A DNA stretch of 64,000 nucleotides from Minisyncoccia bacterium (GCA_041742075.1 JBGSJJ010000015.1:1132-65131); one strand, 5' to 3'. Shown: positions 12,144 to 55,142, counted from the first letter of the stretch. The notes: generated by a model not told the origin, from the letters alone. Translations and numbers: made by a program.

Positions 12144-12150
12144 TCTATAT

Positions 12151-16861: not shown

Positions 16862-16952
16862 AAAAATGTACTAACTGCTACTGTCTATCAGTATACAACC
16901 TATTTAAACAGCAAACACCAAGCATGGCTCGGTGTTTGGGGATACTGGGTTA

Positions 16953-17219
16953 TTACTTAGCTTCGGTAGGATTGTCTGGTGTACCAAGTTGAGACTTAAT
17001 TGCTTCTCGCTTCGCTTGCATACGCGCTTCCCTGGCTTCCTTCACTGCTGTGAGATTCATTACTTGTTTACCGTTGTAAAAACCACAACTAAGGCACATG
17101 TGGTGTGGTCGGTGATGCGCCTTACAGTTTGAACAAACAGCCATTTCTGGCGCAGTAAGAGCGTGGTGTGAACGGCGGTTCTTGGTGTGAGACCGCGTAT
17201 GTCGCATTCGGATTACCAT
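16953..17219 (-). CDS. rpmF: 50S ribosomal protein L32.
   Basis: RHTRSHTKNRRSHHALTAPEMAVCSNCKAHHRPHHMC matches bL32. Confidence 0.85.
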   Translation of the reverse strand: MVIRMRHTRSHTKNRRSHHALTAPEMAVCSNCKAHHRPHHMCLSCGFYNGKQVMNLTAVKEAREARMQAKREAIKSQLGTPDNPTEAK

Positions 17220-17289
17220 AATGGGCCAAACTATAGCAAATGTGGGTAAAAAAGCAAGCCTGCTTAGTAGATAGGCTCAAATAAGCTAT

Positions 17290-17730
17290 TTCGGGCCCAA
17301 AAGAAAAAGACCTCGGGAATCCGGGCCTTTACTACCCCTACTTCTGGGGCAGAGTACCGAGCGAACTCGGCTTGGTATGTCACGGGCCTTCGGCCACGTT
17401 TTGATAGTTTTTGGTCATTTTGAACCCATCCTCTTTTTTTTGCGATCAAGGTCCTTAAAGCGATTGCACTGCTCAAAGCTAGGTGCTGGCTGTGGCAGTC
17501 TCACTGCTGGATCGGTAGGGCAAGCGCCACAGCGCACCCTTACAGCGGGCTGTTTTTCGGCATTTCCCCCGAAAGAACCAGGGAGACCGACCGGCGGTGG
17601 CAGGACAGCGAAAGCAACAAAGTGAGGGCAAGTGCTCTCTGAATTAGGCTTACACGGAACCTTCCTTGACTTTAGAAGGTCAGTCACGACAGGGTCATTT
17701 ACCCTGAGTATAGCTAAACGCAAGACTTTT
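17290..17730. ncRNA. GC-rich noncoding gap, probably a structured RNA. RNase P RNA-like motifs are seen on the plus strand; the identity, strand and ends are unresolved.
   Basis: 570-bp gap between rpmF and rnhB with no plausible ORF and local GC near 58%. Plus-strand motifs: GGGAAUCCGGGCC (CR-I-like), GGGGCAGAG, GGGCCUUCGGCC (UUCG tetraloop), AGCGCACC...GCGGGCUG (P13/14-like), GCAACAAAG, CACGACAG. The minus strand ends in a hairpin followed by a T-tract near 17300. Confidence 0.25.
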
Positions 17731-17787
17731 CTCCCTTATCTTCACGTTTCTTGATTACTTCTTGTAATCAATCTTACTCTACTCCGG

Positions 17788-18453
17788 CTATATATTTTTG
17801 CAATAGCTGACCCGGTGGATATCTGTACAGCCATACTTTTTTATGGCCTGACGGTGGGCCGTCGTGCCATACCCTTTATGTACCCCAAGTGCATATTTCG
17901 AGTACTCTGGACGCTTCCCGACTCGCACCATATACCGGTCTCTGGTCACTTTTGCCATGATGGATGCCAGCCCAATTACCTTCTCTTTACTATCACCCTT
18001 AATTATTGTTTCTTGATGCACAAACTCTTTCGGTGCCCTTAGTCCCCCATCGAGCTTCACTAGCACCTCTTCCACCCCCATCTCTGCACCCATGCTTCCA
18101 GCTCGTTTCCCTAGGCCTTTCCTAGGGAAACTCCCTAGGAAAGGCCTAGGTTCAATTACTTTATAGAGGGCACGAGACATGGCCCTGGTGACAGACGGGA
18201 CGATACCAATCTGGTCGATTACTTTGGCAGACACCATTACTACGACATAATCGAGAGTACCTTCCCGCTTCAACATTTCTGCTTGTTTAAAAATTACTTC
18301 CCGCTTTAGCTCTGAAAGCTGCTTCGAATCATTCACTCCGGGTATAAGCGCCCAATCAAAATCACTTGGTACGAGCACTGCCCCAACCGCGACGGGTCCA
18401 GCCAAAGGCCCGCGCCCCGCTTCGTCTATCCCGATGAGCCATTTTTGATTCAT
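17788..18453 (-). CDS. rnhB: Ribonuclease HII, carrying an insertion of about 25 aa relative to E. coli RnhB that is encoded by a 41-nt perfect palindrome.
   Basis: GIDEAGRGPLAGPV...DSKQLS...KGDS...ASIMAKVTRD RNase HII motifs. Confidence 0.9.
   Translation of the reverse strand: MNQKWLIGIDEAGRGPLAGPVAVGAVLVPSDFDWALIPGVNDSKQLSELKREVIFKQAEMLKREGTLDYVVVMVSAKVIDQIGIVPSVTRAMSRALYKVIEPRPFLGSFPRKGLGKRAGSMGAEMGVEEVLVKLDGGLRAPKEFVHQETIIKGDSKEKVIGLASIMAKVTRDRYMVRVGKRPEYSKYALGVHKGYGTTAHRQAIKKYGCTDIHRVSYCKNI
18130..18170. repeat. 41-nt perfect palindrome CCTAGGCCTTTCCTAGGGA-aac-TCCCTAGGAAAGGCCTAGG lying in frame inside rnhB.
   Basis: 19-bp perfect arms. Encodes FPRKGLGKRAG within an insertion loop. Confidence 0.8.
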
Positions 18454-18537
18454 AGACTAAAGTATAGCAAAGATTGACAAATGCATTGAATATGTCATTA
18501 TTAAAACTGGCAAACGAACCTCAACAGGAGTTTGAGT

Positions 18538-18786
18538 ATGTCTGACCTCAGATTGGATCAAGAGAAAACTGCCCGAGAATTGGCGGACGAAGATTTCGCC
18601 TTGAACTACAAGTTCTATTCTATGATGATAGGGATCTTTCCTGTCATAGTGTCCGGCGTATCTTTTGGTGGTGCGGCCAGTGTAGGTGCCTTATTGGTGT
18701 TTAGTCTTTGCGCATACATATTATACCTACTAATTGTCGCCATCCGTTCCCTGTATCGTCTTATGCTCAGTTTCGTACCTCGCTAA
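18538..18786 (+). CDS. Hypothetical small membrane protein.
   Basis: caggag RBS 7 nt upstream of the ATG. Two predicted TM helices. Confidence 0.4.
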   Translation: MSDLRLDQEKTARELADEDFALNYKFYSMMIGIFPVIVSGVSFGGAASVGALLVFSLCAYILYLLIVAIRSLYRLMLSFVPR

Positions 18787-18807
18787 GAGCATTTATACAG
18801 AAAGCCC

Positions 18808-18846
18808 TGGCGCCTCCCTACTCTGGGGTGGCGCCACAATTTTTCT
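18808..18846 (+). terminator. Rho-independent terminator TGGCGCC-N15-GGCGCCA + caatttttctc.
   Basis: GC stem followed by a T-tract. Confidence 0.6.
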
Positions 18847-18872
18847 CACCAGCCTATCCAGCTGGTTTTATG

Positions 18873-18910
18873 TTGTCTAAACCTACCTGTTAACAGGTAG
18901 GTTTAGACAA
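18873..18910. promoter_or_regulatory. 38-bp perfect palindrome TTGTCTAAACCTACCTGT-ta-ACAGGTAGGTTTAGACAA about 60 nt upstream of dnaE. Candidate operator or hairpin.
   Basis: 18-bp perfect arms containing a CTGT/ACAG core reminiscent of LexA-type boxes. Confidence 0.45.
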
Positions 18911-18970
18911 CAGTGTAATTTGTCATGGAGGTGGGAGTAAAAAATTTGCTATACTGGTGTCTACTATCCT

Positions 18971-21900
18971 ATGCCAGAAAAGCTGTTACAGTCTGACTTT
19001 ATCCATTTGCATGTGCACTCGCACTATTCCCTCCTTAATGCCATCCCGACCCCTAAAGAGCTAGCTGGAGCCGCCAAAGCTGACAGGCAAGAGGCGCTCG
19101 CCTTAACTGACAACGGCGCTCTCTATGGCACCATCGACTTTATTAAAGCCTGCAAGAAACAAGACATAAAACCAATTATCGGGATTGACGCCTATATGGC
19201 ACCACGGACTCGGTTTGATACTGAAGGCAATCTCGACAAACCACGCGCACGGTTGGTCTTGCTCGCTAAGAATAATGACGGCTACAAAAACCTCATCCAG
19301 CTCGTCACTCTTAGTAACACGGAGGGTTTTTACTATCGTCCCCGTCTCGATCGTGAACTCTTAGCTCGATTTGCTAGCGACCTTATCTGCATCCTTCCTT
19401 CATTTGCCGGTGAGACGACACAGCATTTAAAAAACAATGATCTGGAGAAAGCGAGTGCCGACCTTGATTGGTACAAAAAAACTTTCGGAACAGACTCTTA
19501 CCTTGAGATTACCCATCACCCTGAAATGCTTGACCACACGGCCCTCCAGTCAAAAATAAAACAACTTGCTTCAAGTTCGAATACGCCACTCGTAGCCGCG
19601 CACGACGTGTACTATCTAGAGAAGACTGACGCGGTCGCCCGGGAAGCGATGATAAAAATCCAGAATGGTGGTGTGGTTGACATCCATGAGGAACGGTCAG
19701 AAGACTTCTCTTTTATTACTCAAGCACAAGCACGAGAATTTTTTAAAGACAACCCCGAGGCGCTTTTGAACACCGTCAAAATCGCTGAAGCGTGTACTAT
19801 CGATATTCCCGTTGGCACCAAGTGGTACTTCCCTGACTACATCATCCAAAGTGGTAAAGCTCCTGACGATGAGCTCAAGGAACTCGCCTACGCCGGTGTG
19901 CCGTGGCGTGGTCTTTCACTCGATGACGAACTTATAAAAACGCGACTCGATTACGAACTTGAAGTGATTAAGAACAAAGGCTACGCCAAATACTTTCTCG
20001 TGGTCGGTGACTTGCTTCGCGAAGCGCGCGAGCGCGGTATTCTCACCACCATTCGAGGTTCAGTGGCTGGTTCACTCACCACCTATGTACTCGGTATCAC
20101 CAACGTAGACCCGATTGAGTACAAACTCCCCTTCGAGCGTTTTCTCAACCCTGAGCGACCGTCTGCACCCGATATCGACATGGACTACGCCGATAACCGT
20201 CGTGACGAAATAATCGAGTACGCAAAGCAAAAATATGGCGAGGATAAGGTAGCGCAAATCGGCACCTTCGGTACCATGATGGCGCGCGCAGCCGTGCGCG
20301 ACGTCGCGCGTGCCCTTGGCCACCCCTATGGTACCGGCGACCGTATCGCCAAACTCATCCCGATGGGTAGCCAGGGCTTTCCAATGACGATTAAGCGTGC
20401 GCTCGAGCTAGAGCCCGAGCTTCAAAAACTCTATAAGCAAGACGAGGAGTCGCGTGACGTCATTGACTTAGCGAAAAAGATTGAAGGCCGGGTGCGTCAC
20501 TTAGGTGTACATGCAGCGGGAGTTGTTATTGCGCCTGCCCCACTCTCGGAATTCGTACCAATTCAGCTCGATTCTAAAACTGGCAAGTTTATTACGCAGT
20601 ACGAAATGCACAGTGTGGGTGAAGACGGTGTTGGACTTTTGAAGTTCGACTTCCTGGGTATAAAAAATCTTTCTATTTTGGCTGACGCCGTTGAGCGTGT
20701 AAAGAAGATTCAAAAAATTGATATCGATATTGAAAATATTCCACTTGACGACATAAAGACTTTCGCCATGCTGGCTGCCGGACAGACGATGGGTCTATTT
20801 CAATTGAACGGTTCAGGCATGACGTCGTTTTTAAAACAACTCAAACCATCTTCGATTCACGACATAAACGCGATGGTCGCCTTGTATCGTCCCGGACCAA
20901 TGGAATCTATCCCTCAGTATATTGAACGCAAAAATAATCCGTCACTTGTGACGTATCTCGATCCTCGCATGGAAACCATCCTCGACCGTTCGTACGGGGT
21001 GATTACCTACCAAGACGACGTTATGACCATTGCTCGCTTGCTCGCTGGGTACAGTTGGCTAGAGGCAGACATTTTACGAAAAGCGATGGGAAAGAAAATT
21101 CCCGAGGTCATGGCCGCCGAAAAAGACAAGCTCATAAACGGCTTCCGCGATTTTGGAAAGCTCACACCAGCGCTTGGAGAAAAAATCTGGAAACTGATTG
21201 AACCGTTTGCGGCCTATGGGTTTAACAAAGCGCACGCCGCCAGTTACGGGCGGGTTGCGTACCAAACAGCGTACATGAAGGCTAACTTCCCGGTTGAGTA
21301 CATGTCCGCGGTACTCACCGCTGACTCTGGTGATACTGAAAAGATAGCCGAAATCATCCACGAGTGTGAACGCATGGGTATTGAAGTACTGCCGCCAGAC
21401 ATCAATGAATCCTTCGCGCCATTTTCGGTAGTACCAGCAAGTGGTGACACGCCAGCGCGGATCCGTTTTGGTCTCACGACTATCAAAAACTTCGGTGAAG
21501 GGATTGCCCACGCCATCATTACAGAGCGTAAAGCGAATGGTCCGTTTGAATCACTGTCTGACCTCCTCACCCGCGTGCAAGACAAAAACCTCAACAAGAA
21601 ATCCCTCGAAGCACTGATTATGGTGGGAGCGCTTGATCGTTTTAACGAACGCGGACTGCTCCAGCAAAACTTAGAATCAATTCTGGCCTGGAGTAAAGAA
21701 AGTAGTGCTGGTAAAGAAGCTAACCAAACCTCCCTCTTCGGCTCAAGTAGTGAAGGTATCCACGCCCTTACGCTCGCTCCCGCTGACCCAGCCACCACTG
21801 AGCAAAAGCTACTCTGGGAAAAAGAACTCCTCGGCGTCTACGTGTCTGGACACCCGCTCCAGCAGTACGAAGCTGAACTCAAAGCCCGTGCTTCAATCAA

Positions 21901-22225
21901 GGCTATTAAGGAGGACATGCGAAATGGTATTCCAGTGGTGACTGCTGGTATGGTAGAAACTGTCCGCGAACTCCTGACGAAAAAAGGCGACAAGATGGCT
22001 TTTGTGCTTCTCACCAACGAAACTGACGCCATTGAGATGGTTGCCTTCCCAGAAGTCTACAGGGCTAGTCGTGAACTACTTATGCCTGGCCAATGTATCG
22101 CCGTCAAAGGAAAACTCACTATCCGAAACGACGAACCGAGCATTGCCCTTGAGAAAGTGAAGTCACTGGCTCCAGCGCAAGCGAGCTTAGCACCACTGGT
22201 TGACACCACAAGCCTAAAGACATAA
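18971..22225 (+). CDS. dnaE: DNA polymerase III alpha subunit.
   Basis: 1084 aa. N-terminal PHP domain HLHVHSHYSLL, polymerase core, OB fold. Confidence 0.93.
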   Translation: MPEKLLQSDFIHLHVHSHYSLLNAIPTPKELAGAAKADRQEALALTDNGALYGTIDFIKACKKQDIKPIIGIDAYMAPRTRFDTEGNLDKPRARLVLLAKNNDGYKNLIQLVTLSNTEGFYYRPRLDRELLARFASDLICILPSFAGETTQHLKNNDLEKASADLDWYKKTFGTDSYLEITHHPEMLDHTALQSKIKQLASSSNTPLVAAHDVYYLEKTDAVAREAMIKIQNGGVVDIHEERSEDFSFITQAQAREFFKDNPEALLNTVKIAEACTIDIPVGTKWYFPDYIIQSGKAPDDELKELAYAGVPWRGLSLDDELIKTRLDYELEVIKNKGYAKYFLVVGDLLREARERGILTTIRGSVAGSLTTYVLGITNVDPIEYKLPFERFLNPERPSAPDIDMDYADNRRDEIIEYAKQKYGEDKVAQIGTFGTMMARAAVRDVARALGHPYGTGDRIAKLIPMGSQGFPMTIKRALELEPELQKLYKQDEESRDVIDLAKKIEGRVRHLGVHAAGVVIAPAPLSEFVPIQLDSKTGKFITQYEMHSVGEDGVGLLKFDFLGIKNLSILADAVERVKKIQKIDIDIENIPLDDIKTFAMLAAGQTMGLFQLNGSGMTSFLKQLKPSSIHDINAMVALYRPGPMESIPQYIERKNNPSLVTYLDPRMETILDRSYGVITYQDDVMTIARLLAGYSWLEADILRKAMGKKIPEVMAAEKDKLINGFRDFGKLTPALGEKIWKLIEPFAAYGFNKAHAASYGRVAYQTAYMKANFPVEYMSAVLTADSGDTEKIAEIIHECERMGIEVLPPDINESFAPFSVVPASGDTPARIRFGLTTIKNFGEGIAHAIITERKANGPFESLSDLLTRVQDKNLNKKSLEALIMVGALDRFNERGLLQQNLESILAWSKESSAGKEANQTSLFGSSSEGIHALTLAPADPATTEQKLLWEKELLGVYVSGHPLQQYEAELKARASIKAIKEDMRNGIPVVTAGMVETVRELLTKKGDKMAFVLLTNETDAIEMVAFPEVYRASRELLMPGQCIAVKGKLTIRNDEPSIALEKVKSLAPAQASLAPLVDTTSLKT

Positions 22226-22264
22226 AGTGACATTAGGAAATCAAGAACTAGTGGAAAATGAACC

Positions 22265-22843
22265 ATGCTTCATGCCCATAGACTTATCTTGGCTTGGGGT
22301 GGTACTCCAGTGTTTCTGGAATTAGGTGACATACACCTACCATCTGATTCAAAAAAACAAGCACTTGTTGATCTTTCAGTAACACGCACTCACGATACTC
22401 ACCAAGTAGCGTTCAAGCCCCAAGCTGGCCCTTTGTCTTGGTTATATTTCATTATGTGTTCTAAAGTTCATTCCCCTATTATGGCTTCAGTCTCATTCAG
22501 GAGTGAAGAGTGCACTTTAAACAATCAGATGCGACTCTGGTTGGATGACTTCATCCGCGACCGGGTTGAAACAGCCTGGTCAAGGACTAAGTTTACTCTG
22601 GTAGCCACCAGCCCAATTGCACCTGAAATCTCAGGTGACTCAGAACACTTTGAGTTCAGTATTAGACTCAGCCAGCCGAACACTGGTTTGGTACAACTTA
22701 CTTCATTACCAAATCTCCAAATCCATTGGACTGAACTCCTCCCGAAAGGACCTTACCGAACGAGAATACATGAAGCTTTTCAAGAATACTACCGTCTTAG
22801 AAAGCAACTCAAGAAACGTCCACGATTGGTAGAAGTCACCTAA
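22265..22843 (+). CDS. Hypothetical protein (192 aa).
   Basis: ORF with its own downstream terminator. No recognisable motif. Confidence 0.4.
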   Translation: MLHAHRLILAWGGTPVFLELGDIHLPSDSKKQALVDLSVTRTHDTHQVAFKPQAGPLSWLYFIMCSKVHSPIMASVSFRSEECTLNNQMRLWLDDFIRDRVETAWSRTKFTLVATSPIAPEISGDSEHFEFSIRLSQPNTGLVQLTSLPNLQIHWTELLPKGPYRTRIHEAFQEYYRLRKQLKKRPRLVEVT

Positions 22844-22852
22844 TCTTATCTA

Positions 22853-22887
22853 TGCACCGACCTTCTCTCTTGGGTCGGTGCAATTTT
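22853..22887 (+). terminator. Rho-independent terminator GCACCGACC-N9-GGGTCGGTGC + aatttttg.
   Basis: Stem plus T-tract. Confidence 0.65.
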
Positions 22888-22957
22888 TGACATAATCTAT
22901 TTTAAATGCATAATATAAATCGAATACACGTACACTGTTCACCTGAAGGAGACTTAC

Positions 22958-23374
22958 ATGGACATCAAGTCGCTAGAATTGCTGGTTCGAACATGGGCAA
23001 ATGAACAATCTCTCCCCTCTGCGGGGGTAACTGTCACAGTCTCAATTGTCTGCGCCGGAGATGGTCTTTCCACCCAAGCCACCATTGAGAGTACCGACAA
23101 CAACATTCTTCTTATGGACTTTCTTTCTGAAGAAAACTTTGAAGCAGCCGGTGTGCCGGCAAAGATTAATTTAATCAGAATTAGGAACGTACTACGTAAC
23201 ACCGCTGGAGACACGTACAACGACTTCCCGGACATCCGCTACTGTACCGTAGATGAATTCGTCAATCGAGTTACTGAGCGATCACTGCTCATGCAGCCGA
23301 ACTTCAGTAGAAAGTCGTTGACCTGCCTTAACCAAGTTCTCAAGCACCACGGATACCCCCAATTTCGCCCATGA
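22958..23374 (+). CDS. Hypothetical protein with an RNA polymerase alpha-CTD-like helix-hairpin-helix C-terminus.
   Basis: aaggag RBS. C-terminal PNFSRKSLTCLNQVLKHHG resembles the RpoA alpha-CTD motif PNLGKKSLTEIK. Confidence 0.5.
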   Translation: MDIKSLELLVRTWANEQSLPSAGVTVTVSIVCAGDGLSTQATIESTDNNILLMDFLSEENFEAAGVPAKINLIRIRNVLRNTAGDTYNDFPDIRYCTVDEFVNRVTERSLLMQPNFSRKSLTCLNQVLKHHGYPQFRP

Positions 23375-23382
23375 CAATACCC

Positions 23383-23418
23383 GCGCCGACCCCCAAGGGG
23401 TCGGCGCGATTTCTTTTG
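23383..23418 (+). terminator. Rho-independent terminator CGCGCCGACCCC-caa-GGGGTCGGCGCG + atttcttttgtt.
   Basis: 12-bp GC stem plus T-tract. Confidence 0.8.
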
Positions 23419-23446
23419 TTGACAATCTACCTTGGCACGCTAGTAT
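23419..23446 (+). promoter_or_regulatory. Promoter TTGACA-N16-TAGTAT for the thrS leader.
   Basis: Consensus-like hexamers read from the sequence. Confidence 0.5.
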
Positions 23447-23452
23447 GTATAC

Positions 23453-23695
23453 ACATTCAGAGATTGCTTCGGCTACCAACCGAGGAGGTATACAGTCTCT
23501 ACCTATCATCAATGATAGGTAGAGACAACCTACGATATTAGTCTAATCTGACCCTTAAGTGCTGACGAGAAAACACTTGTCAGAAACTCGGTGGAACCGC
23601 GGTTACAAGTACCCTTTCGGTACTTAAAAATCGTCCGAGTGAGCACACGAACTTTCGTGTATTCACTCGGACGATTTTTCAGTTATTAGTTTTAA
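23453..23695 (+). promoter_or_regulatory. Candidate T-box riboswitch leader for thrS. T-box core AAACTCGGTGGAACCGCGG at 23584-23602, competing terminator at 23626-23680, and a candidate Thr specifier ACC(A) in a hairpin loop at about 23473-23476.
   Basis: GGTGGAACCGCGG matches 13/13 of the GGTGGNACCGCGG T-box core. ACTCGG just 5' of UGGA can pair with CCGAGT in the 5' strand of the terminator AAAAATCGTCCGAGTGA...TCACTCGGACGATTTTT, which is the antiterminator/terminator alternative. The N of UGGN is A, complementary to U73 of the tRNA-Thr in this window. Confidence 0.5.
23495..23526. promoter_or_regulatory. 32-nt perfect palindrome GTCTCTACCTATCATcaATGATAGGTAGAGAC (motif copy C) inside the thrS leader.
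   Basis: Shares a 20-nt core with copy A (8075-8098) and a 15-nt core with copy B. Confidence 0.6.
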
Positions 23696-23705
23696 TTACT
23701 CACCT

Positions 23706-25460
23706 ATGCCAGAACAATTAGAAAAGACTCGACACACCCTCGCCCACCTGCTTGCGAAAGCTGTGTTGGTAAACTTTCCGCACGCCAAGCCCACTATCGG
23801 TCCGGCTATCGAGACGGGTTTTTACTATGACTTTGACTTCAGTGGTGGCGCGAGCCCAAGTGATGCCGACCTCAAAGTCCTTCAGACCACTATGCGCAAA
23901 ATGCTGAGTTCATGGACAGAGTTCTCCCACCGGGAAGTCAGCCCAGACGAAGCCCGAGCGGTTTTTGTGGGGAATCAGTTCAAACTAGAACTGATTGAAG
24001 AATTGGCAGAGAAAGGTGAGACTATAACACTATATACCGTTGGGTCTGGCAAAACTGAGTTTACCGACCTCTGTCGTGGTGGACACAGCGCGAGCCCAGC
24101 GAATGAAATCAGCGCTGATAGTTTCAAGCTGGATAAAGTTGCTGGTGCCTACTGGCGAGGCGATGAGAAAAATCCAATGCTCGTGCGTATCTACGGACTC
24201 GCATTTGCTGACAAAGATGGACTTGAAGCCTACGAAACACAATTGGCCGAAGCTAAAAAACGCGACCATCGAAAACTTGGGAAAGAACACGACCTCTTCA
24301 CCTTTTCAGAACTTGTCGGTTCTGGTCTACCGCTCTGGACTCCAAAAGGCACCGTCATCCGTCACGAACTCGATACGTTCATCTGGAAACTCCGCGAAAA
24401 GCATGGCTACCAACGAGTAACCATTCCCCACATCACCAAGAAAGACCTGTATGTCACGTCCGGTCACTGGGAAAAATTTGCCGATGAGTTGTTCCGTATC
24501 ACCACTCGCGAAGGTAAAGAATACGCTCTTAAGCCAATGAACTGTCCGCACCACACGCAGATTTTTGACCGTCAACCACACAGCTACCGTGACATGCCGG
24601 CTCGCTACGCTGAGACCACTATGGTCTACCGCGATGAGCAATCAGGCGAGCTGGGTGGACTTACCCGGGTACTTTCCATCACCCAAGACGACTCACACGT
24701 ATTTTGCCGCCACTCTCAGATTAAGGAAGAGTTCTTCCGCGTTTGGGACATCATCGACACCTTCTATGGAACCTTCGGTTTCAATCTTCGCGTGCGTCTA
24801 TCTTTCCACGAACCGACAGAGATGGAAAAGTACCTTGGCACGAAAGAGATTTGGGAGAATGCTGAGAATGCCCTTAGAGACATAGCGATAGAGCGTAAAG
24901 CAGATTACTTTGAAGCACCAGGCGAAGCCGCTATGTACGGACCGAAGCTCGACTTCATGGCCAAAGACTCCATTGGTCGTGAGCACCAAGTGGCGACCAT
25001 TCAGCTTGATATGAACCTCCCAGAACGCTTTGACCTTACCTGCATCAATGAAAAAGGTGAGAAAGAGCGTATCGTGATGATGCACTGCGCTATTATGGGG
25101 TCTATCGAACGCTTTACCGCAGTCTTGATTGAGCACCTTGGTGGCAACTTCCCGCTTTGGCTCGCTCCAGTTCAGGTAGCCATCATCCCGGTATCTGAAG
25201 TTCACGATGCCTACGCCACGCAAGTACACCAGGCACTCCGGGCTATCGGCATTCGAGCTGACTACTACGGCGACAATGACTCGATGGGCAAAAAGATTCG
25301 GACTGCCAAGCAAGCCAAACTTCCCTACTTCGTCGTCATCGGTGACAAGGAAGTGGAAGCAAAGAATGTGACCCTTGAAAGTCGTGATGGTGAATCTAGG
25401 CAAATTGACCTACACGCGCTCGGCAATCATCTCCTCACTGAAATTGAGGTGAAGAAGTAG
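23706..25460 (+). CDS. thrS: Threonyl-tRNA synthetase, short form lacking the N-terminal TGS domain.
   Basis: HTLAHLLAKAV editing-domain HxxxH, class II motifs, C-terminal anticodon-binding domain. Confidence 0.92.
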   Translation: MPEQLEKTRHTLAHLLAKAVLVNFPHAKPTIGPAIETGFYYDFDFSGGASPSDADLKVLQTTMRKMLSSWTEFSHREVSPDEARAVFVGNQFKLELIEELAEKGETITLYTVGSGKTEFTDLCRGGHSASPANEISADSFKLDKVAGAYWRGDEKNPMLVRIYGLAFADKDGLEAYETQLAEAKKRDHRKLGKEHDLFTFSELVGSGLPLWTPKGTVIRHELDTFIWKLREKHGYQRVTIPHITKKDLYVTSGHWEKFADELFRITTREGKEYALKPMNCPHHTQIFDRQPHSYRDMPARYAETTMVYRDEQSGELGGLTRVLSITQDDSHVFCRHSQIKEEFFRVWDIIDTFYGTFGFNLRVRLSFHEPTEMEKYLGTKEIWENAENALRDIAIERKADYFEAPGEAAMYGPKLDFMAKDSIGREHQVATIQLDMNLPERFDLTCINEKGEKERIVMMHCAIMGSIERFTAVLIEHLGGNFPLWLAPVQVAIIPVSEVHDAYATQVHQALRAIGIRADYYGDNDSMGKKIRTAKQAKLPYFVVIGDKEVEAKNVTLESRDGESRQIDLHALGNHLLTEIEVKK

Positions 25461-25492
25461 AAATTACTTCATACTCATACCCTCTGTCGTAA

Positions 25493-25526
25493 AGCAAAAC
25501 CTTTCATTCGAATGAAAGGTTTTGCT
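25493..25526. terminator. Bidirectional terminator AGCAAAACCTTTCAT-tcga-ATGAAAGGTTTTGCT.
   Basis: Perfect 15-bp palindrome with A/T tracts, between thrS(+) and the convergent minus-strand gene. Confidence 0.75.
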
Positions 25527-25597
25527 GTCTAAGTTATGTGCATACACCACTACGTCAAAACATTTGTGGTGTCGCAATTTTCGCACCCTCGACAAAT

Positions 25598-26527
25598 CTA
25601 GAATGCGAGCTCCTTGCCATTCGGCAAAACAACCGTACTGTTATCTTTCCACACGATACCGGCATCCTGAAGTGCTTTTCTGAATTCCATTGCCATATCA
25701 TATCGCTCAGGACTTTCATTGAGGTCACTTTCAGAAAGTAACACTTGGGTTCTCCCCGTTGTTACATCAAAGCCATGCAACATTCCGTTTGGACAACCTT
25801 CACCGCAATTGAGCGTGGTAATTATCGCTTTGGTTCCAGACGCATTCCATGTCATATCGTCAAATCCGTAGTTAGCGACAGTTGTTTCAAAATCAGGCTT
25901 TAGAGGTATTTTAATGATTGCGCTTGAACTTACATCGATTACATGGGTTATGTACGTGTAATCCCAACACATACCATCAGGTGGAGTACACCTTCTATCA
26001 TTAGTGAGAATATGTAGTAGTGACTGGGAGCTGTTAGTTGAAGTTGCGTGTGTGAAATTTCCTTCATTAAAACCAACAGCTTCTAAAACAAAGGCTTTCT
26101 CAAATGTATCAGTATCAAATTCCTCAATAATGAGTAGCTCGTTATTCCACTCAAGTACGTACGCACCCTTACCCAAACAAACATCATTCTCACTCACATA
26201 ATAACCCCAACCACACACCTGATGCACAAAACCCGTTTTACCTTGCCTAGAAAAAGAACGCGAGCCGATAACGTTGCCCCATTCTAGCTCACGGTAATTA
26301 CCACTCTTATACGAGTCATCACTGTTTGTACCTGAAGGCTCCATCACTTTAGAAAGTCGTTCTTCTAATAAGCTAATCTGCTCATTCAATAAGCGGATAT
26401 TCTGGTCATACGTCGTTACTAACGTATTCTTGTTTTGGCTTTGCTCAGTAATAAATAACCCTCCACTGACGAGTATTACTACGAGTAAACTTATCAGTCC
26501 TAAAATTGCGTACCGCGTGTTTTGCAT
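25598..26527 (-). CDS. Hypothetical N-terminally membrane-anchored extracellular protein (309 aa).
   Basis: N-terminal TM helix, a coiled-coil segment, Cys-rich C-terminal region. Confidence 0.5.
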   Translation of the reverse strand: MQNTRYAILGLISLLVVILVSGGLFITEQSQNKNTLVTTYDQNIRLLNEQISLLEERLSKVMEPSGTNSDDSYKSGNYRELEWGNVIGSRSFSRQGKTGFVHQVCGWGYYVSENDVCLGKGAYVLEWNNELLIIEEFDTDTFEKAFVLEAVGFNEGNFTHATSTNSSQSLLHILTNDRRCTPPDGMCWDYTYITHVIDVSSSAIIKIPLKPDFETTVANYGFDDMTWNASGTKAIITTLNCGEGCPNGMLHGFDVTTGRTQVLLSESDLNESPERYDMAMEFRKALQDAGIVWKDNSTVVLPNGKELAF

Positions 26528-26539
26528 ATAAATATGTTA

Positions 26540-26580
26540 GCACGAAAAATCCCAGACAGTATGTCTGGGATTTTTCGTGC
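26540..26580. terminator. Bidirectional terminator GCACGAAAAATCCCAGACA-gta-TGTCTGGGATTTTTCGTGC.
   Basis: Perfect 19-bp arms. Confidence 0.75.
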
Positions 26581-26743
26581 TTAGCGTAGCCAAGTCAGAA
26601 GTGCAACTTTTATGCCTTAATCACAAGCGTAGGAAAATTTTCCGCTACGAGACGTACGAGGAAAATGGTACGAGTCGTATTCAATATACGATGAGAACCA
26701 TTTTACCGAAGTACAACGACGTAGAGGAAGATTTTAACAAGCT

Positions 26744-29545
26744 TTAGGCTAATTCTTTTACGGCCTTCATTATCGCCATCTTCACCGCCTCTGCTTCGTC
26801 GGTATAGGTACCGTCGATAGCTGAAGTAAGCGCTACTATCGCCTTCTCAAGTTGTACTGAAGTAATCTTTGCAGATTCTGCTTCAAGCATTTCTGAGACA
26901 GCTACTCGTTCACCTTTTCGTGAGCGATATACGGCATCAAGGTCAGATGCTGCATCAGCGAGCGCTACCATTGGTCGGTTAGAGATCATCGCGAAGGCTG
27001 CAACCACGTTTCCTGTTACCAGTGCTTCAGCGAGTGAACCACTCGTGGTTGGGGTTACGTCTGTCTCAACAGCTACAGATTCTCCTTCGTTTAGGTCGCC
27101 AAGAAGGGCTTCCATTCGAGAGAGGTTGAGTACGATCCAACCATCTTCAGTTGGGAAAGTAACTTTCGCTACTCGTACTACACCATCAAGCTTTTGTGCA
27201 CGCTTCTCTAGTGAGTTTTCTGTGTGCATGAGGTATCGCATAGCGTCACTTGAAAGAAGAGCCTTTTGTGCGTGCGCTCGGTTTTCGAGTTCAGACATTT
27301 CATTTTCTTCTTCTGTAAGGGCCTGAGTGTAGGCAGCTTGGTACCCAATCACCGCTGGAGTAGCAGATTCTGCTACTGGGAGATTTTCTGGTACTACGTT
27401 CTTTACTGGTGCTGCTGTTGCTTGTGCAAAGAGGATAGCTGAAGTTGGGAGTTCTGCACTAATGTCAGTTACTGTACTAGCGTCAGTGTAACTTCGAGCT
27501 GGGAACGCCCCTGGAAGACTTACTCCAGCAAACGTGTCGCGACGAATCACTAGTAGGTAGGCAACAAAGGCAGACCAAAGTGCGAGAAGTGCGTAGAAGA
27601 TAAATGTAAGGGTTGGTCCAGCTTCAAAACCTGTGTATGGCACTTGCGTAAGCGCAATACCAGCTACCAGTGGTTGATTTCGCTCTTCAGTTACTGTTAC
27701 AGCTGATTTAGCGACATCTACTGAAACTTTACAAGTTCGTTCTCGACTTCCTTTACTGGCAACGAGTGTGTAGGTAGTGTCCTTGGTTGGCTTTACGGTA
27801 ATACTTCCGTCATAGTAGTCACTTCGTTCACTACTCTTGTATTCGTTTGTATCAAGAAGTTCTTTCTTGAAACTATCTACGAGAGTCACTCGAGTTGCCC
27901 TTGATGTTTCCCAAGTAATCTTCACTGATTCACCAGCTTTGATAGACTTGTCAGAAATCTTGAGCTCACACTTCGGTGAAGAAGAACCTCCTCCGCCACC
28001 TCCGCCACCGTCTTCAGCTTGAATTGAAACTGGACAACTTCGTTCTGAGGTAGCGTTCTTAATAGTAAGGTTGTAGGTAATGTCGTCATTAACTTGTACC
28101 ACCCGGTTTCCATTGTTTGCTACAGCACCAATACCTTGGTCGATAGATGCGCTGGTTACTCGGTCATTATAGGTCCAAGCGAGCGTGACACTGTCACCTT
28201 CACGAACTGAACTGTCAGAAGTAGTAAAGGTTACGTCACTACAAGTAAGTGGTTCTGGTGTGTTTGGTACTGTTACCTTAGTTGAACAAGATACAGTTCC
28301 GCCTTCGCCAACTGCTGTTAGGGTGTAGGTCTTTGTAGAAGTAGTATTTACAGTCTTTGAACCATTCTTGTCTACTGCACCAACTCCTTCATTTATAGTA
28401 ACGGTATCAGCGTTCTTGGTAGTCCAAGCAAGCGCTACATCACCACCACCAACTGGAAGCTCATCTGGTGTACCATCAAGCGTACATTCTGGTTCAGGTA
28501 CTTCTTCTTCGATAATTTCATCAAGTGCGGCACAAAGTGGCTTAAGACTATTTGGTGAAGATGTGTCTGGATAGACAGCGTGTACACCAATAGCTGTAGT
28601 AATCACTTGCGATACTGACAATGAATCATTGACTTGAGTTTGTACTGAAGCTTCACGTACGTTGTCAGCAAGGTCAGCTGAAGCGTTAGAAGTTGCTACT
28701 GTGGTTGCTCCGTTCTTTAGAACGAGCTTCCACTGTTCGTTTGGCTGAGAAACATTGACACGGTCGTTGTACCCGTCCCAACTTCCTAGAGTTACTTTGT
28801 AGTTTCCGACTGGTAGCGCAACTGACTTTTCTGAAGTTACACTTTCACCTTGACTCTTATCACTTCGGATTTTGCGATCGTCAGACGTGAAGTCAATAAT
28901 TGTTCGTCCAGCCTGTGGGGCAAACGGACAATGGTCAGGTGTAGGTTCTTCTGGTTTCTTCGTAACAACTACTGATTTAGTACACTGAACTGTTCCGCCA
29001 GGACCAGTCGCTGTCAAAATAAAGTTAGTTGGTTGCGTAACAGTCTCTGTACGATTGTTATTTAGAGCAACGTTACCAATCGCATTGTTGAAAGATGCAG
29101 TGTCTGCATTCTTAGTTGTCCAGGTAAGGACAACTGGACCACCTCCTTCTGGTACTGAAGTCTTGTCAACTTCAAGTGTACATTCAGGTGCATGCACAAC
29201 TGGTGGCACTTTTACCGTTACCTTAGTTGAACACGTAAGTGTGTCGTGACGACCTTCCTTGTGCATGTGAGCAGTATAGGTAGTCGTTTCAGTAGGCTTT
29301 ACGATTGCAAAACCATCACGAGCAAATTGCTTGTTAGGAATCTTATCGATAGTGACATATGAAATGTCTGAGTATGGTGCATTCCACACAAGCTTTACCT
29401 CTTCACCAGCAAAAACTTCGCTTGGTGTAGCGGTAAGACCCTTGCAACTCCAAGCCTCTACTGCTGGTACTGCAACAGAGTTTACTGTTGCTACCACAAA
29501 AAAGAGGGCGAAAGCGATGCTGTAAATTCGAGTAATGTTGTTCAT
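26744..29545 (-). CDS. Large surface protein (933 aa): signal peptide, about five tandem Ig-like domains of about 100 aa, an internal LPXTG-like sorting signal (VPYTG, TM helix, RRD), then a 270-aa C-terminal cytoplasmic domain.
   Basis: Repeated (E/K)CTL...W(T/N)(T/A)KNADT...G.V......TY.LTA.G.GGTV.C pattern. GGGGGGGG linker. QVPYTGFEAGPTLTFIFYALLALWSAFVAYLLVIRRD. Adjacent to the sortase gene. Confidence 0.6.
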   Translation of the reverse strand: MNNITRIYSIAFALFFVVATVNSVAVPAVEAWSCKGLTATPSEVFAGEEVKLVWNAPYSDISYVTIDKIPNKQFARDGFAIVKPTETTTYTAHMHKEGRHDTLTCSTKVTVKVPPVVHAPECTLEVDKTSVPEGGGPVVLTWTTKNADTASFNNAIGNVALNNNRTETVTQPTNFILTATGPGGTVQCTKSVVVTKKPEEPTPDHCPFAPQAGRTIIDFTSDDRKIRSDKSQGESVTSEKSVALPVGNYKVTLGSWDGYNDRVNVSQPNEQWKLVLKNGATTVATSNASADLADNVREASVQTQVNDSLSVSQVITTAIGVHAVYPDTSSPNSLKPLCAALDEIIEEEVPEPECTLDGTPDELPVGGGDVALAWTTKNADTVTINEGVGAVDKNGSKTVNTTSTKTYTLTAVGEGGTVSCSTKVTVPNTPEPLTCSDVTFTTSDSSVREGDSVTLAWTYNDRVTSASIDQGIGAVANNGNRVVQVNDDITYNLTIKNATSERSCPVSIQAEDGGGGGGGGSSSPKCELKISDKSIKAGESVKITWETSRATRVTLVDSFKKELLDTNEYKSSERSDYYDGSITVKPTKDTTYTLVASKGSRERTCKVSVDVAKSAVTVTEERNQPLVAGIALTQVPYTGFEAGPTLTFIFYALLALWSAFVAYLLVIRRDTFAGVSLPGAFPARSYTDASTVTDISAELPTSAILFAQATAAPVKNVVPENLPVAESATPAVIGYQAAYTQALTEEENEMSELENRAHAQKALLSSDAMRYLMHTENSLEKRAQKLDGVVRVAKVTFPTEDGWIVLNLSRMEALLGDLNEGESVAVETDVTPTTSGSLAEALVTGNVVAAFAMISNRPMVALADAASDLDAVYRSRKGERVAVSEMLEAESAKITSVQLEKAIVALTSAIDGTYTDEAEAVKMAIMKAVKELA

Positions 29546-29801
29546 AATATTTTGTAAAGGTTATTAATATTTTACGTACTTCTAAATACTCTCACCTACA
29601 CCCTAGACGTTTAGTACGTCCCTTGTACGCGAGAATATGAAAAGCCATAAAGATGACGAATCTTTAGATCATAGTCAGTTTTCGATGAGCGTTTTTGGCA
29701 CTTTGCCTAGGAGGAACGAGTCTTAAAGTAAGACCACTCTATACAAGTATCATAGCAAATTTATTTGGTTTTGTCAAGTTTTCCCCTGACTTCCTATCAA
29801 A

Positions 29802-30464
29802 CTAGAGTGGACTTGAACCAATTAAAATTGCCTCCACCATAAAGCGGTCATCTTTAGAGCCAAAACTATTGCAGGTGGCCAAGGTAAGCCGTGCTTCACC
29901 CGGTGTAAACGGCACTACCACCTCCTCAGCCGACGCTTCATACACCTTTTCGACTCGGTAGGTATACTCAGTGTCGTCTGACTGCAAGCGAATCCGATCA
30001 CCCCATTTTAGGTTTTGGATTCCATTAAAGGCCTGGAAGTTGCGATTCAGAACGTTCGGTAGGTAGCTAGAATGACCTAAAATAAAGATATTTCCAGGTT
30101 CTTGAAAATCGGCTGAGTCTGGATGGCGAACCACTCCCTCAAGTAGAGCCTTATCGAGTTCAGCAATCTCTCGTGACTCGGGGTTTAAAACCACCACCTC
30201 TTTGTTGTTAAGGCTATCAAAGATGATTTTATTGGGTTTCGGAGAGTCTACCATGACGATTTCAGGTTCTTCTCCAACAATTTCAGCCATTTCTTCAAGG
30301 ACGGTCTCTTCTACCGCCTCAGTCACGACTGGTTCTGGGTAGAAATCAAGCGCGTAGAAGATGCCATAGGTAACGGTAACTACCACAAAAAAGACTACAA
30401 AAAAGGGTATTTTTCGCAGTTTAAATTGAGCGTATAGCTCGTTAAAGGTAGTAGGTGTCTTCAT
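29802..30464 (-). CDS. Sortase-family transpeptidase.
   Basis: N-terminal TM anchor. NIFILGHSSY (catalytic His region), TLATCNSFG (TLxTC catalytic Cys), and an Arg further downstream. Confidence 0.7.
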   Translation of the reverse strand: MKTPTTFNELYAQFKLRKIPFFVVFFVVVTVTYGIFYALDFYPEPVVTEAVEETVLEEMAEIVGEEPEIVMVDSPKPNKIIFDSLNNKEVVVLNPESREIAELDKALLEGVVRHPDSADFQEPGNIFILGHSSYLPNVLNRNFQAFNGIQNLKWGDRIRLQSDDTEYTYRVEKVYEASAEEVVVPFTPGEARLTLATCNSFGSKDDRFMVEAILIGSSPL

Positions 30465-30806
30465 AAGTTGCTGTATAATACACTATTTCTAATAAATGTC
30501 AAGTAGATAGTGCTTTTATCTTTGTCATTTGGGTATTCTGAGTAAATCCTGCCTACTACCGTAGCGCAAGCCAAGCCCCTTGTCCACTAAAGACAAATGT
30601 CATTTTCTGCAGTGATTACTTGACAATTTTCTACAATATGCTATTATAAAAGGGTACTCAGAGCGCTTCTCGCGCTTGCACGTTCTCCTCTTTGTAGTTC
30701 TATCACCCAAACTCGCTTCGGCGACTTGGGTGTCATTCCTACAAGCATTTCTGAACGTAGGTACGTCTTACTGCCCCAATCAATTTAGTAATTACAAATT
30801 TTATTT

Positions 30807-31919
30807 ATGAACGAAAACGAACAAGTTGTGGTTGAGGTACCGGAAGAAAAGAAAACCGCCCTCACAAAAGTGTTTGCGATTGTTGGTTTCATTGCCATCA
30901 TTGTTCTCATGGTCTGGCTCTCAGTCAAAATTGTTGCCTTTGTACCAAATGCCTTTTCTTCACTCGCGTCAATTGCAGACAGTGTCTACAACTACGACGA
31001 GGACGAGAAGCTTAGTGTGGCAACTGAGAAGAGTGTGATCAATGCTGGTGAGGCTTTTACCATCACCTTTGAAAAAATGACCATTCCAGGTACGTATACG
31101 TTTATGTATACGTGTACTGACGGTGTGTCGGTTGAAGTTCGTAACGAGGCTGGCTCAATTGTAGCGATTAGTTGCGATACCGTGTTTGACATTAGTGAGA
31201 TGGACTCACTTGACGTCCGCGTCGCTTCAGAAAAGAATCGCTTTACTGACGTTGCCTATGCTCTCACCTTTACTCCAGACAATACCGACAAAGATGCTAT
31301 TTCAGTGCAAGGTATGGTGACCATCGTGAATGCCAGCATGCCAACCGTGGCAGAAGGTACTCCGGACACTGAGGAAACACCAGTTACTCCAGAAGTAATT
31401 GAGGAAACGGAAGAGGAAGTAGTGGCTGAACCAGAAGCTGAAGTAGTAGAGGAAACTACCACCACCCCAAAACCTCCAGTTGTAACAAAGCCGACTACTC
31501 CAAAGCCACCTCAATACCAATACGTAGAAGAAGTGACGTACACCACTCCTGTCTCTAACCCAAATGGCAACATCGACCTTCAGGTTACCTACAAAGCGGT
31601 CGGTACCATGAACGGTAAAGTATTTAGCCCTCAGTCAAACATTGAGACTGACGAAACAGGGGGTATTCAGTTTGAGGTAAAAAACATTGGTACCAAAACC
31701 AGTAACAGTTGGACCTATGAAGCACTTCTTCCTTCTGGAATTGAATACACTTCAGGTGTCCAAAAGCCACTTAAGCCACAGGAGCGTGCTCTCATCACCA
31801 TTGGTTTTGATGGCATCTCAGAAACTGGCACTGAAAAGTTTGGCGTCGAGCTTGAAACCAAGCAAGACGTTAACGCTCGAAACGACTCCTTCACTTGGGC
31901 AGTAACCATCGTTAACTAA
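30807..31919 (+). CDS. Hypothetical membrane-anchored extracellular protein with an acidic Pro/Thr/Glu-rich linker (370 aa).
   Basis: N-terminal TM helix (FAIVGFIAIIVLMVWLSV), low-complexity linker, beta-rich C-terminal domain. Confidence 0.5.
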   Translation: MNENEQVVVEVPEEKKTALTKVFAIVGFIAIIVLMVWLSVKIVAFVPNAFSSLASIADSVYNYDEDEKLSVATEKSVINAGEAFTITFEKMTIPGTYTFMYTCTDGVSVEVRNEAGSIVAISCDTVFDISEMDSLDVRVASEKNRFTDVAYALTFTPDNTDKDAISVQGMVTIVNASMPTVAEGTPDTEETPVTPEVIEETEEEVVAEPEAEVVEETTTTPKPPVVTKPTTPKPPQYQYVEEVTYTTPVSNPNGNIDLQVTYKAVGTMNGKVFSPQSNIETDETGGIQFEVKNIGTKTSNSWTYEALLPSGIEYTSGVQKPLKPQERALITIGFDGISETGTEKFGVELETKQDVNARNDSFTWAVTIVN

Positions 31920-31949
31920 ATTACTCCAGAGACTAGTAAGACGGCTCTA

Positions 31950-31995
31950 CAAAAACACCCGCCCCGAGGCCTTTGGCCTCGGGGCGGGTGTTTTA
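31950..31995 (+). terminator. Terminator AAAACACCCGCCCCGAGGCC-ttt-GGCCTCGGGGCGGGTGTTTT. Coordinates are +/-1.
   Basis: Long GC-rich palindrome with a T-tract, after the 30807-31919 gene. Confidence 0.7.
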
Positions 31996-32011
31996 TTTCT
32001 ACCTCAGGTAT

Positions 32012-32040
32012 GTTGACAATTCACTTATTTATACTATAAT
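32012..32040 (+). promoter_or_regulatory. Near-consensus sigma70 promoter TTGACA-N16-TATAAT driving the islet-2 gene.
   Basis: Read directly from the sequence. An aagagg RBS lies 6 nt before the ATG. Confidence 0.6.
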
Positions 32041-32077
32041 ACTACTGATACCCTGTCCCTCAAATCAAGAGGCCACC

Positions 32078-32389
32078 ATGACCAAGATCCCCTCGTACTG
32101 CAATCAGCTGGACTTTCCGTTGTTCGCAACGGAAAGCGGGAGCGTCGTTACCCCACGCCGCGCTGGGAACAAAGTCGCACTCGCCTACGTCGACGTCCGT
32201 CCGGCAGACCAGGCCTTCGGTATTCAGCCCAAGCAACCGGTCGCCCTCGCCGAGGTACTGATCCCGGCAAACGAACATGCCACCGCGTTCTGCCGCCAGC
32301 AAATGGTCGGCGAGGACTATCCGGGACCGACCTACCCGGTCGACCTCGAAGGTGAAATCGTCTTGATCACCCTTCAGCCCCAGGGCTGA
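32078..32389 (+). CDS. Hypothetical small protein (103 aa) in GC-rich islet 2 (about 62% GC). Paralog of the protein at 9752-10084.
   Basis: Strong promoter, RBS and downstream terminator. GC-rich third codon positions unlike neighbouring genes. Motif similarity with the islet-1 protein (FCRQQMVGEDYPGPTYPVDLEGEIVLI vs LCRTYTLNDDPLPLDKLVGLI). Confidence 0.55.
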   Translation: MTKIPSYCNQLDFPLFATESGSVVTPRRAGNKVALAYVDVRPADQAFGIQPKQPVALAEVLIPANEHATAFCRQQMVGEDYPGPTYPVDLEGEIVLITLQPQG

Positions 32390-32416
32390 GAAGTACAGGA
32401 CGAGAGCCTCAATCTG

Positions 32417-32446
32417 GAGCCCGCGACACTCGCGGGCTCTTATTTT
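32417..32446 (+). terminator. Terminator GAGCCCGCGA-cac-TCGCGGGCTC + ttatttt.
   Basis: GC stem plus T-tract. Confidence 0.75.
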
Positions 32447-32751
32447 ATATAGCGATTAATCGCTATATAAAAATGACTCGTCTATTTATCTAAGTTTCAT
32501 TTTTTGGAAGAGAAACGAAGGAATTGAAAAAATGTAAACAAGTAGTCTCTCTCGGCATATTAAATTAGATGAAATGCAAGATGTGGTAAGAAAATAATCT
32601 GAGGCGTATTCAAAAATTTACGTTATTTGTCACAGGTGGATATTTCAAAATTTTGATGAAGTACGAGGCGTGCAAAGCGTGTGAAGCGAAGCGTACTTGA
32701 TGTACGATGAGCTTCGCACGACTGCAGCACAACGAAGTAATTCGCAAAATT

Positions 32752-34935
<2,184 letters not shown>

Positions 34936-55134: not shown

Positions 55135-55142
55135 GCTATTTC

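Follow-up and report, generated by a model that had tools for sequence, protein, structure and literature searches.

A 64,000-nucleotide stretch of DNA from a Minisyncoccia bacterium (GCA_041742075.1 JBGSJJ010000015.1:1132-65131; hereafter, the window) encodes a membrane-anchored sortase and, directly downstream on the same strand, a 933-amino-acid surface protein whose sorting signal, VPYTG with a transmembrane helix and basic residues, lies in the interior of the chain. The signal is followed by a conserved intracellular tail that, in predicted structures, looks like two domains of clamp-loader subunits, and this combination of an internal sorting signal with a conserved clamp-loader-like intracellular domain is an arrangement not described before. 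The gene pair is best explained, with a probability of roughly 0.6, as a dedicated sortase system with one main substrate that is conserved in Paceibacteria-type members of the candidate phyla radiation (CPR) and in which the tail is an accessory clamp-loader-like module.

Sortase substrates carry a C-terminal signal, and the remnant left in the membrane is a short throw-away peptide. Here, the substrate would be exported through Sec and held in the membrane by the [V/I/L]PYTG-FEAGP-transmembrane-RR segment, and the adjoining membrane-anchored sortase would cleave the T-G bond on the outside of the membrane. The variable repeat ectodomain would be joined to the cell wall or another envelope acceptor, and the remaining fragment would start at Gly and comprise the transmembrane helix and a folded cytoplasmic domain. 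A preliminary description of this DNA, made from the sequence alone, had pointed out that cleavage would leave a membrane-tethered intracellular domain, as the topology implies. The tail may act as a cytoplasmic oligomerization or scaffold module that clusters or positions the precursor or the membrane remnant. Full-text literature searches returned no VPYTG, IPYTG, or LPYTG motif in the sortase sense, no sortase substrates with folded cytoplasmic domains, and no such locus in CPR, in which a sortase family is common (PMC6744442).

Sortase and internal sorting signal

The 220-amino-acid open reading frame (ORF) matches the Pfam sortase family (PF04203) at 64.6 bits (cutoff, 26.6; E = 9.3e-18), and 2kw8 is the solved structure closest to it in sequence (E = 3.4e-7). 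The motifs LGHSSY, TLATC, and DDR.iVEA are each at least 90% conserved among 74 sequences, i.e., the window sortase and 73 orthologues. The sortase that the preliminary description placed directly upstream of the substrate is thus confirmed, with its His, Cys, and Arg motifs intact. As in classical LPXTG systems with class A to F sortases, the enzyme is a His/Cys(TLxTC)/Arg cysteine transpeptidase with a membrane anchor, and the substrate has a signal peptide, P, T, and G at motif positions 2, 4, and 5, and a hydrophobic helix with basic residues. The present signal differs from the classical one in its motif, [V/I/L]PYTG, which stands in the extended context R.Q.PLVAGI.L.Q-VPYTG-FEAGP, and in its internal position ahead of a folded cytoplasmic domain of ~260 amino acids.

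In all six frames of the window, the VPYTG site is the sole instance of [x]P[x]TG combined with a transmembrane helix; the sequences spanning the putative cleavage site between T and G are LTQVPYTGFEAGP and GIALTQVPYTGFEAGP. After the RRD stop-transfer charge, 263 residues remain in the window protein, and the signal is therefore not at the extreme C terminus. The succession of VPYTG, hydrophobic helix, and RRD had already been noticed in the window sequence, and it recurs widely: [V/I/L]PYTG with a transmembrane helix and a tail of 120 to 310 amino acids is found in ~75 of the 120 best homologues (of 364), whose ectodomains are unrelated. Across 36 diverse homologues (alignment A1), P, T, and G never vary and Y hardly does, so that the internal motif holds up when homologues are checked for its conservation. 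P, T, and G are likewise invariant in a signal alignment (A2), and within its main class so are R13, Q15, and P16. The flanks are also conserved: R.Q.PLVAGI.L.Q precedes the motif, and FEAGP and FY..LL..W.....Y follow. Certain lineages have this signal at the very C terminus, the zero-frame proteins of loci L050 and L055 ending in ...VIKKKVS before the stop codon, and in a tail-less clade it is nearly terminal. This position in a minority of relatives indicates that the [V/I/L]PYTG segment is a bona fide sorting signal. The linker motif NLPT(G) was considered as a second sortase site and rejected, because of its cytoplasmic location and the absence of the x position.

A divergent subfamily (L003, P0046, P0066, P0067, P0074, P0079, P0087, P0105, and P0112) carries the motif [L/I/V]PYTG-L(D/E)LGP. 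In its members the first tail domain (D1, below) is swapped for an unrelated ..Y.GF(K/R)SFA..GALT(I/V)(D/E)DIV.GL.R segment, and the second (D2) is retained. L003 is the one retrieved locus of this subfamily, and its sortase synteny is unchanged.

A scan in which each GTDB species was represented by one genome confirmed at least 124 loci with signal and tail, all in Patescibacteria, with the labels Kaiserbacteria, Nomurabacteria, and Parcubacteria/Paceibacteria. A search with the 68-amino-acid signal alignment A2 as the query supplied the best 80 genome loci, from 80 different assemblies, and a degenerate PYTGFEAGP pattern was used to pick 80 metagenome contigs independent of these. In 73 of 73 genome loci and 33 of 33 metagenome loci that are informative on this point, the sortase gene is upstream of, and codirectional with, the substrate gene. 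The titles of three retrieved loci (L008, L013, and L057) read Patiriisocius, Acidimicrobiales, or Azotimanducaceae, and many others read “uncultured Candidatus Saccharibacteria”; such off-taxon titles on a Patescibacteria-specific locus probably reflect bin contamination or generic labels. SrtB-IsdC and the class GN (“marine”; TIGR03784) systems are similar in that one sortase stands beside one cognate substrate with a noncanonical motif and the two are coinherited. The locus described here differs from such dedicated pairs in lying inside a housekeeping block (gyrB...thrS-dnaE) across a CPR class and in the cytoplasmic module of its substrate, and its sortase reaches just 21 bits against the TIGR03784 cutoff of 158.

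It is doubtful that the motif goes unprocessed, i.e., that the protein is a type I transmembrane adhesin or receptor coupling its ectodomain to the clamp-loader-like domain while the sortase serves other substrates. A long conserved tail and a conserved transmembrane helix would suit an intact transmembrane link, and the fused form is the majority (104 of 160 related loci), but a sortase accompanies the invariant P, T, and G at 106 of 106 informative loci, some lineages carry this signal at a true C terminus, and the 64-kb window contains no other substrate.

An assembly artifact, gene fusion, or frameshift peculiar to the window has almost no probability and was rejected on the basis of the homologue survey. 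Frame breaks in a minority of relatives are all that speaks for it. The window ORF is unbroken and is colinear with a 927-amino-acid homologue at 81% identity and with dozens more, down to 22%; the identical protein is present in independent records; the fused form is found across both collections; and no homopolymer in the window gene, A runs included, is longer than 4. The frameshift check suggested at the outset was therefore negative, and homologues that end shortly after the transmembrane helix, which had been expected if the gene were an artifact, exist as a minority, but the window gene is no artifact and the module is deeply conserved.

Predicted fold of the cytoplasmic tail

A long, helix-rich cytoplasmic domain after the signal was anticipated in the preliminary description, and the 263 residues indeed contain two conserved helical domains, D1 and D2, behind a low-complexity linker. 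Conserved motifs are LENRAH...LLSSDA.R...P.EDGW in D1 and GSLAEAIVTGN...DLDA.YR...DGTY...KMAIMKA in D2. A profile of D1 plus D2, searched against 1.84 billion representatives, matches 715 clusters (50% identity), always at the C terminus.

Two AlphaFold2 (AF2) models, of residues 610 to 933 and 737 to 933, both give D1 and D2 with a predicted local distance difference test score (pLDDT) of >90. In Foldseek searches of the PDB with the two models, clamp-loader subunits fill the first 23 and the first 20 places, respectively, namely, the E. coli gamma, delta, and delta' subunits, B. subtilis delta, and one RFC-like loader. The matches extend over ~200 columns in domain order (probability, 0.87 to 1.00; E = 1.1e-3 to 1e-1). 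D2 matches E. coli gamma/delta and B. subtilis delta best, D1 alone superimposes on the RuvB lid with a root mean square deviation of 1.8 Å over 71 columns, and the Pfam model Hda_lid gives a weak match in 3 of 36 tail members.

In these models, the tail thus resembles a clamp-loader subunit stripped of its ATPase domain, with counterparts of domains II (AAA+ lid) and III (collar). Its predicted fold and domain order, lid then helical collar, are those of DnaX gamma/tau, HolA delta, and HolB delta'. Unlike these subunits, it has no AAA+ ATPase domain I and no sequence-level similarity: only ~70 low-confidence linker residues separate the transmembrane helix from D1, and no AAA Pfam match was obtained. 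Given the missing domain I and the failed sequence-profile tests, the likeness is one of fold and not of clamp-loader membership. A further difference from clamp-loader subunits is that the tail is membrane tethered behind a sorting signal; dnaE and gyrB share its genomic block, but the data do not imply a link to replication. Neither holA nor dnaX was found among ten mid-size window ORFs checked.

Tail modularity and frame breaks in relatives

Domain hidden Markov models were used to assign tail classes across 160 related loci, 80 from genomes and 80 from metagenomes. Signal, D1, and D2 are fused in 104 loci (54 genome and 50 metagenome), and D1 stands alone in 19 (6 and 13), although 4 of the 13 metagenome cases have long tails in which D2 may be too divergent to detect. 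The tail is absent from 11 loci (8 and 3), D1 and D2 lie in another frame in 14 (10 and 4), and 2 genome (L051 and L076) and 10 metagenome loci are truncated by the contig end. In the class without a tail, the protein stops ~40 amino acids past the transmembrane helix and is followed by thrS. Gene callers also report tail-only ORFs, which make up ~25 of the 150 top-ranking representatives. The tail, lost, shortened, or uncoupled in relatives, is an accessory module, and since some relatives lack it, keep D1 alone, or carry it in the -1 frame, it is not part of the sorting signal.

Twelve of the 14 split loci break at exactly A9, one breaks at A7, and one breaks at no run. All 13 A-run cases (L012, L017, L021, L024, L030, L034, L042, L050, and L055 from genomes; L093, L112, L122, and L132 from metagenomes) need a -1 shift, whereas just 6 of 64 surveyed nonsplit loci have an A run of ≥7 in the same interval. 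The runs occupy three positions, ~95, ~150 to 174, and ~290 nucleotides past the motif, in lineages whose flanking DNA is ≤78% identical, and the zero frame ends within 2 to 15 codons. The zero frame at the first site runs as ...VIKKK(V/R)S up to the stop codon, a textbook sorting-signal end, with an in-phase A AAA AAG in L050 and L055; the exact junction pattern of these two loci had no match in the metagenome collection. At the second site, the zero frame reads KKKV..L..K(Y/H).G... and is homologous to the C terminus of the tail-less clade, ...NRKKVEALVAKY.G..K, both up to the stop. This homology of the short product makes both frames look functional.

In E. coli, the tau and gamma products of dnaX arise by a -1 frameshift at A AAA AAG, annotated as a joined coding sequence in NC_000913.3. 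The 13 relatives are similar in that an in-phase A AAA AAA/G (A9 or A7) lies between a short product in the zero frame and a longer one in the -1 frame. Transcriptional slippage on A runs occurs for dnaX in other bacteria. The A9/A7 breaks suggest programmed -1 frameshifting or transcriptional slippage that would yield a classical tail-less substrate together with a tailed isoform. The putative recoding differs from that of dnaX in being confined to related loci, the window gene not included, and in being deduced from conservation.

The preliminary description likened the protein to a signaling or regulated-proteolysis architecture. In such a scheme, the sortase would serve as a site-1 protease, and cleavage or its failure would alter the state of the transmembrane-tail remnant, which, released by an intramembrane protease or signaling directly, would report on surface protein assembly to the cytoplasm. 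The topology would leave a folded domain inside after cleavage, and the transmembrane residues are conserved beyond mere hydrophobicity. There is also a loose precedent in Streptococcus gordonii, in which, according to PMC11326707 (citing Hall et al. 2019), the membrane remnant of sortase A substrates is sensed by a two-component kinase. The likeness lies in a remnant of sortase cleavage with its own function; the S. gordonii remnant as given there is a short peptide read by a separate histidine kinase, whereas the remnant predicted here is a transmembrane helix plus a folded domain of ~260 amino acids with no linked kinase. Searches of the tail against Pfam and PDB sequences gave no kinase or other signaling, DNA-binding, or anti-sigma domain, and lid- and collar-like domains are predicted instead. 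Furthermore, no site-2 protease or regulator lies within the conserved block, although a protease might be encoded elsewhere, and, of the related loci, 11 lack the tail, 19 have it truncated, and 14 encode it in a separate frame. The signaling interpretation is consequently unlikely, and a tail that can be dispensable, shortened, or in a separate frame fits an accessory module better than an obligatory cleavage-triggered signal. Collar domains of clamp loaders are oligomerization elements, and this, together with the optional nature of the tail, favors a scaffold role, a transcription-type signal transducer being less likely.

Several points weigh against a dedicated sortase system with a clamp-loader-like accessory tail. 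The sortase lies far below the cutoff of every NCBIfam class model, with scores (cutoffs in parentheses) of 34.2 (160) for class E, 30.8 (140) for SrtD, 29.7 (165) for class D, 24.5 (160) for class C, and 21.3 (158) for GN/TIGR03784, so that no described class (A to F or GN) can be assigned. Unlike classical anchors, the signal is recognized by no NCBIfam anchor model, as neither the substrate nor four isolated signals gave a match at E values of up to 10. FEAGP and particular transmembrane residues are kept beyond the needs of a plain sorting signal, which hints at further interactions. The clamp-loader likeness comes from predicted structures with marginal Foldseek E values (1e-3 to 1e-2). 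The tail has no match in Pfam (HMMER), NCBIfam, or PDB sequences beyond the weak one to Hda_lid, and an hhalign comparison of the tail profile with E. coli gamma residues 175 to 373, as a single sequence, was nonsignificant (E = 0.099), although it puts the start of D2 at the beginning of gamma domain III. Finally, we infer from sequence both the cutting of VPYTG by the sortase and the attachment to the wall, and that the tail serves as a scaffold or in clustering is a low-confidence best guess. A more speculative and rather improbable extension is that surface protein, sortase, and tail form a transmembrane device specific to Paceibacteria, in which the collar-like tail, following sortase cleavage or in its place, oligomerizes or docks onto the replication/clamp-loader machinery of the same block. 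Chromosome handling would then respond to the state of the envelope or of host contact, and programmed -1 slippage at A9 would set the ratio of wall-anchored to tailed isoforms in some lineages.

Ectodomain, genomic neighborhood, and implications

The preliminary description counted about five immunoglobulin (Ig)-like repeats in the ectodomain. The number stands: R1 to R5 (Table 1) are mutually alignable units of ~80 amino acids, each with two bracketing Cys residues and the shared pattern C...W.T...TY.L.A.G..G...C. Ig-like is a tentative label for them, as the repeats match nothing in Pfam or PDB sequences; the insert between R2 and R3 likewise has no significant Pfam match. DUF11-type and subthreshold Ig domains occur in homologues only, not in the window substrate. 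Among orthologues, the ectodomain differs in length (193 to 1,278 amino acids before the motif) and in domain content, with DUF11 in some. The Gly8 tract between R4 and R5 may be a flexible hinge or a slippage-prone GGN tract.

The gene order gyrB (+), a divergent membrane protein of ~360 amino acids (-), sortase (+), substrate (+), thrS (-), and dnaE (-) was found in 4 loci by exact protein lookup and in all 73 genome loci with sufficient upstream sequence, and the window has the identical order on the opposite strand. The wider housekeeping block, at positions 15959 to 34842 of the window and in L001 to L084, comprises nusB-NUDIX, (rpmF, rnhB), dnaE, thrS, substrate, sortase, the divergent gene (div370), and gyrB. 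Its synteny persists down to 22 to 25% substrate identity, and in every genome examined a surface module is placed between replication genes.

The div370 gene encodes a 370-amino-acid protein with a transmembrane anchor, a P.AFSSLASLA motif, a Cys-pair domain, a P/T/E-rich linker, and a CARDB-like C-terminal domain. This layout follows from the conservation pattern of 61 aligned sequences (60 homologues of >300 amino acids and the window protein), and a homologue in L004 has a weak CARDB annotation. Div370 homologues are present in 67 of 84 loci (L001 to L084), and div370 has no sorting signal.

Such a neighbor raises the question of whether the sortase polymerizes its substrate into a pilus or fiber, joined to itself or to the CARDB-like div370 and not to peptidoglycan, with the tailed isoform as the membrane base. 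The pair adjoins div370, the tailed and tail-less isoforms of some lineages would suit a fiber with a distinct base subunit, and the sortase has partial matches to the class C, D, and E models. However, the ectodomain length is very variable, each locus has a single sortase and a single substrate gene, div370 lacks a sorting signal, and no pilin motif or E-box was noticed in passing, with no search aimed at either. Polymerization is accordingly improbable. In L002, a second, shorter substrate gene (11618 to 13405) lies directly downstream; it has a short tail and a sorting-signal match of its own, and one substrate per sortase is thus not strict everywhere.

Four TTGACA/TATAAT-type sites score 11 to 12 of 12, three of them placed upstream of substrate, sortase, and div370. 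These putative sigma-70 promoters suggest separate transcription of the three genes, and the site in the sortase-substrate intergenic region suggests that the substrate gene has its own strong promoter.

Between substrate and thrS, the window contains a 309-amino-acid ORF (25598 to 26527, minus strand) with an N-terminal transmembrane segment and no Pfam match. It looks like a lineage-specific insertion because it is missing from all related loci except L042. A second likely envelope cluster, at 52802 to 63930 on the minus strand, includes a 2,303-amino-acid ORF (57019 to 63930), a protein with a WxL-interacting peptidoglycan-binding domain (55143 to 56204; 27.4 bits versus a cutoff of 27.3), and a 523-amino-acid protein with fn3 (52802 to 54373). 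No protein of this cluster carries a PYTG-type signal.

Table 1. Features of the sortase-substrate locus, in window positions
Feature	Position	Strand	Residues	Basis or remark
Sortase gene	29802..30464	-	220 amino acids	Pfam PF04203; motifs common to 73 orthologues
Sortase N-terminal transmembrane anchor	30348-30410	-	18-40	Hydropathy
Sortase catalytic His motif LGHSSY	30063-30080	-	129-134	
Sortase catalytic Cys motif TLATC	29871-29885	-	194-198	
Sortase catalytic Arg motif DDRFMVEA	29829-29852	-	205-212	
Substrate gene	26744..29545	-	933 amino acids	Stop codon at 26744-26746
Signal peptide	29453..29545	-	1-31	Hydrophobic core 7-30 (hydropathy); putative cleavage between AVEA and WS
Ectodomain	27710..29452	-		Repeat alignment
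Repeat R1	29210-29452	-		Repeat alignment
Repeat R2	28958-29194	-		Repeat alignment
Ectodomain insert	28499-28957	-	197-349 (~150 amino acids)	Unrelated to repeats
Repeat R3	28262-28498	-		Repeat alignment
Repeat R4	28010-28255	-		Repeat alignment
Eight-Gly run plus Ser 521	27983-28009	-	513-520 (Gly run, 27986-28009), 521	Between R4 and R5
Repeat R5	27710-27982	-		Repeat alignment
Stalk and sorting motif, VTEERNQPLVAGIALTQVPYTG	27629..27694	-	618-639	Conserved in homologue alignments
VPYTG pentapeptide	27629-27643	-	635-639	Alignment
FEAGP	27614-27628	-		Immediately after VPYTG; alignment
Substrate transmembrane helix	27545-27613	-	645-667	Hydropathy; AF2 helix 644-666
RRD stop-transfer charge	27536-27544	-	668-670	Sequence
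Cytoplasmic linker, low complexity	27335..27535	-	671-737	Alignment A1; pLDDT ~50
Linker motif NLP[T/V]...GY, NLPV copy	27374-27385	-		Alignment A1
Tail domain D1, AAA+ lid-like	27089..27334	-	738-819	pLDDT >90; Foldseek
Tail domain D2, collar-like helical	26747..27034	-	838-933	pLDDT >90; Foldseek
Promoter-like site, TTGACA-17-TATGAT with extended TG, 11/12	29749..29777	-		Sortase-substrate intergenic; consensus match only
Promoter-like site, TTGACA-16-TATTAT, 11/12	30475..30502	-		Just upstream of sortase start; consensus match only
Promoter-like site	30620-30647	+		Ahead of div370; consensus match only
div370 gene	30807..31919	+	370 amino acids	Divergent from sortase
div370 N-terminal transmembrane anchor	30861-30944	+		Alignment
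Promoter-like site	32013-32040	+		Fourth near-perfect TTGACA/TATAAT-type match

A conserved folded domain behind the signal of the sole sortase-adjacent substrate implies a link between sorting and the cell interior. The locus provides a testable handle on envelope biogenesis in CPR, whose cell surface is almost unknown. Its sortase belongs to an unclassified clade with a new motif, [V/I/L]PYTG, a potential orthogonal ligation tag. In addition, the lid and collar fold of clamp loaders, as predicted for the tail, is here put to an orphan use, and the A9 runs of the relatives are likely a new case of recoding.

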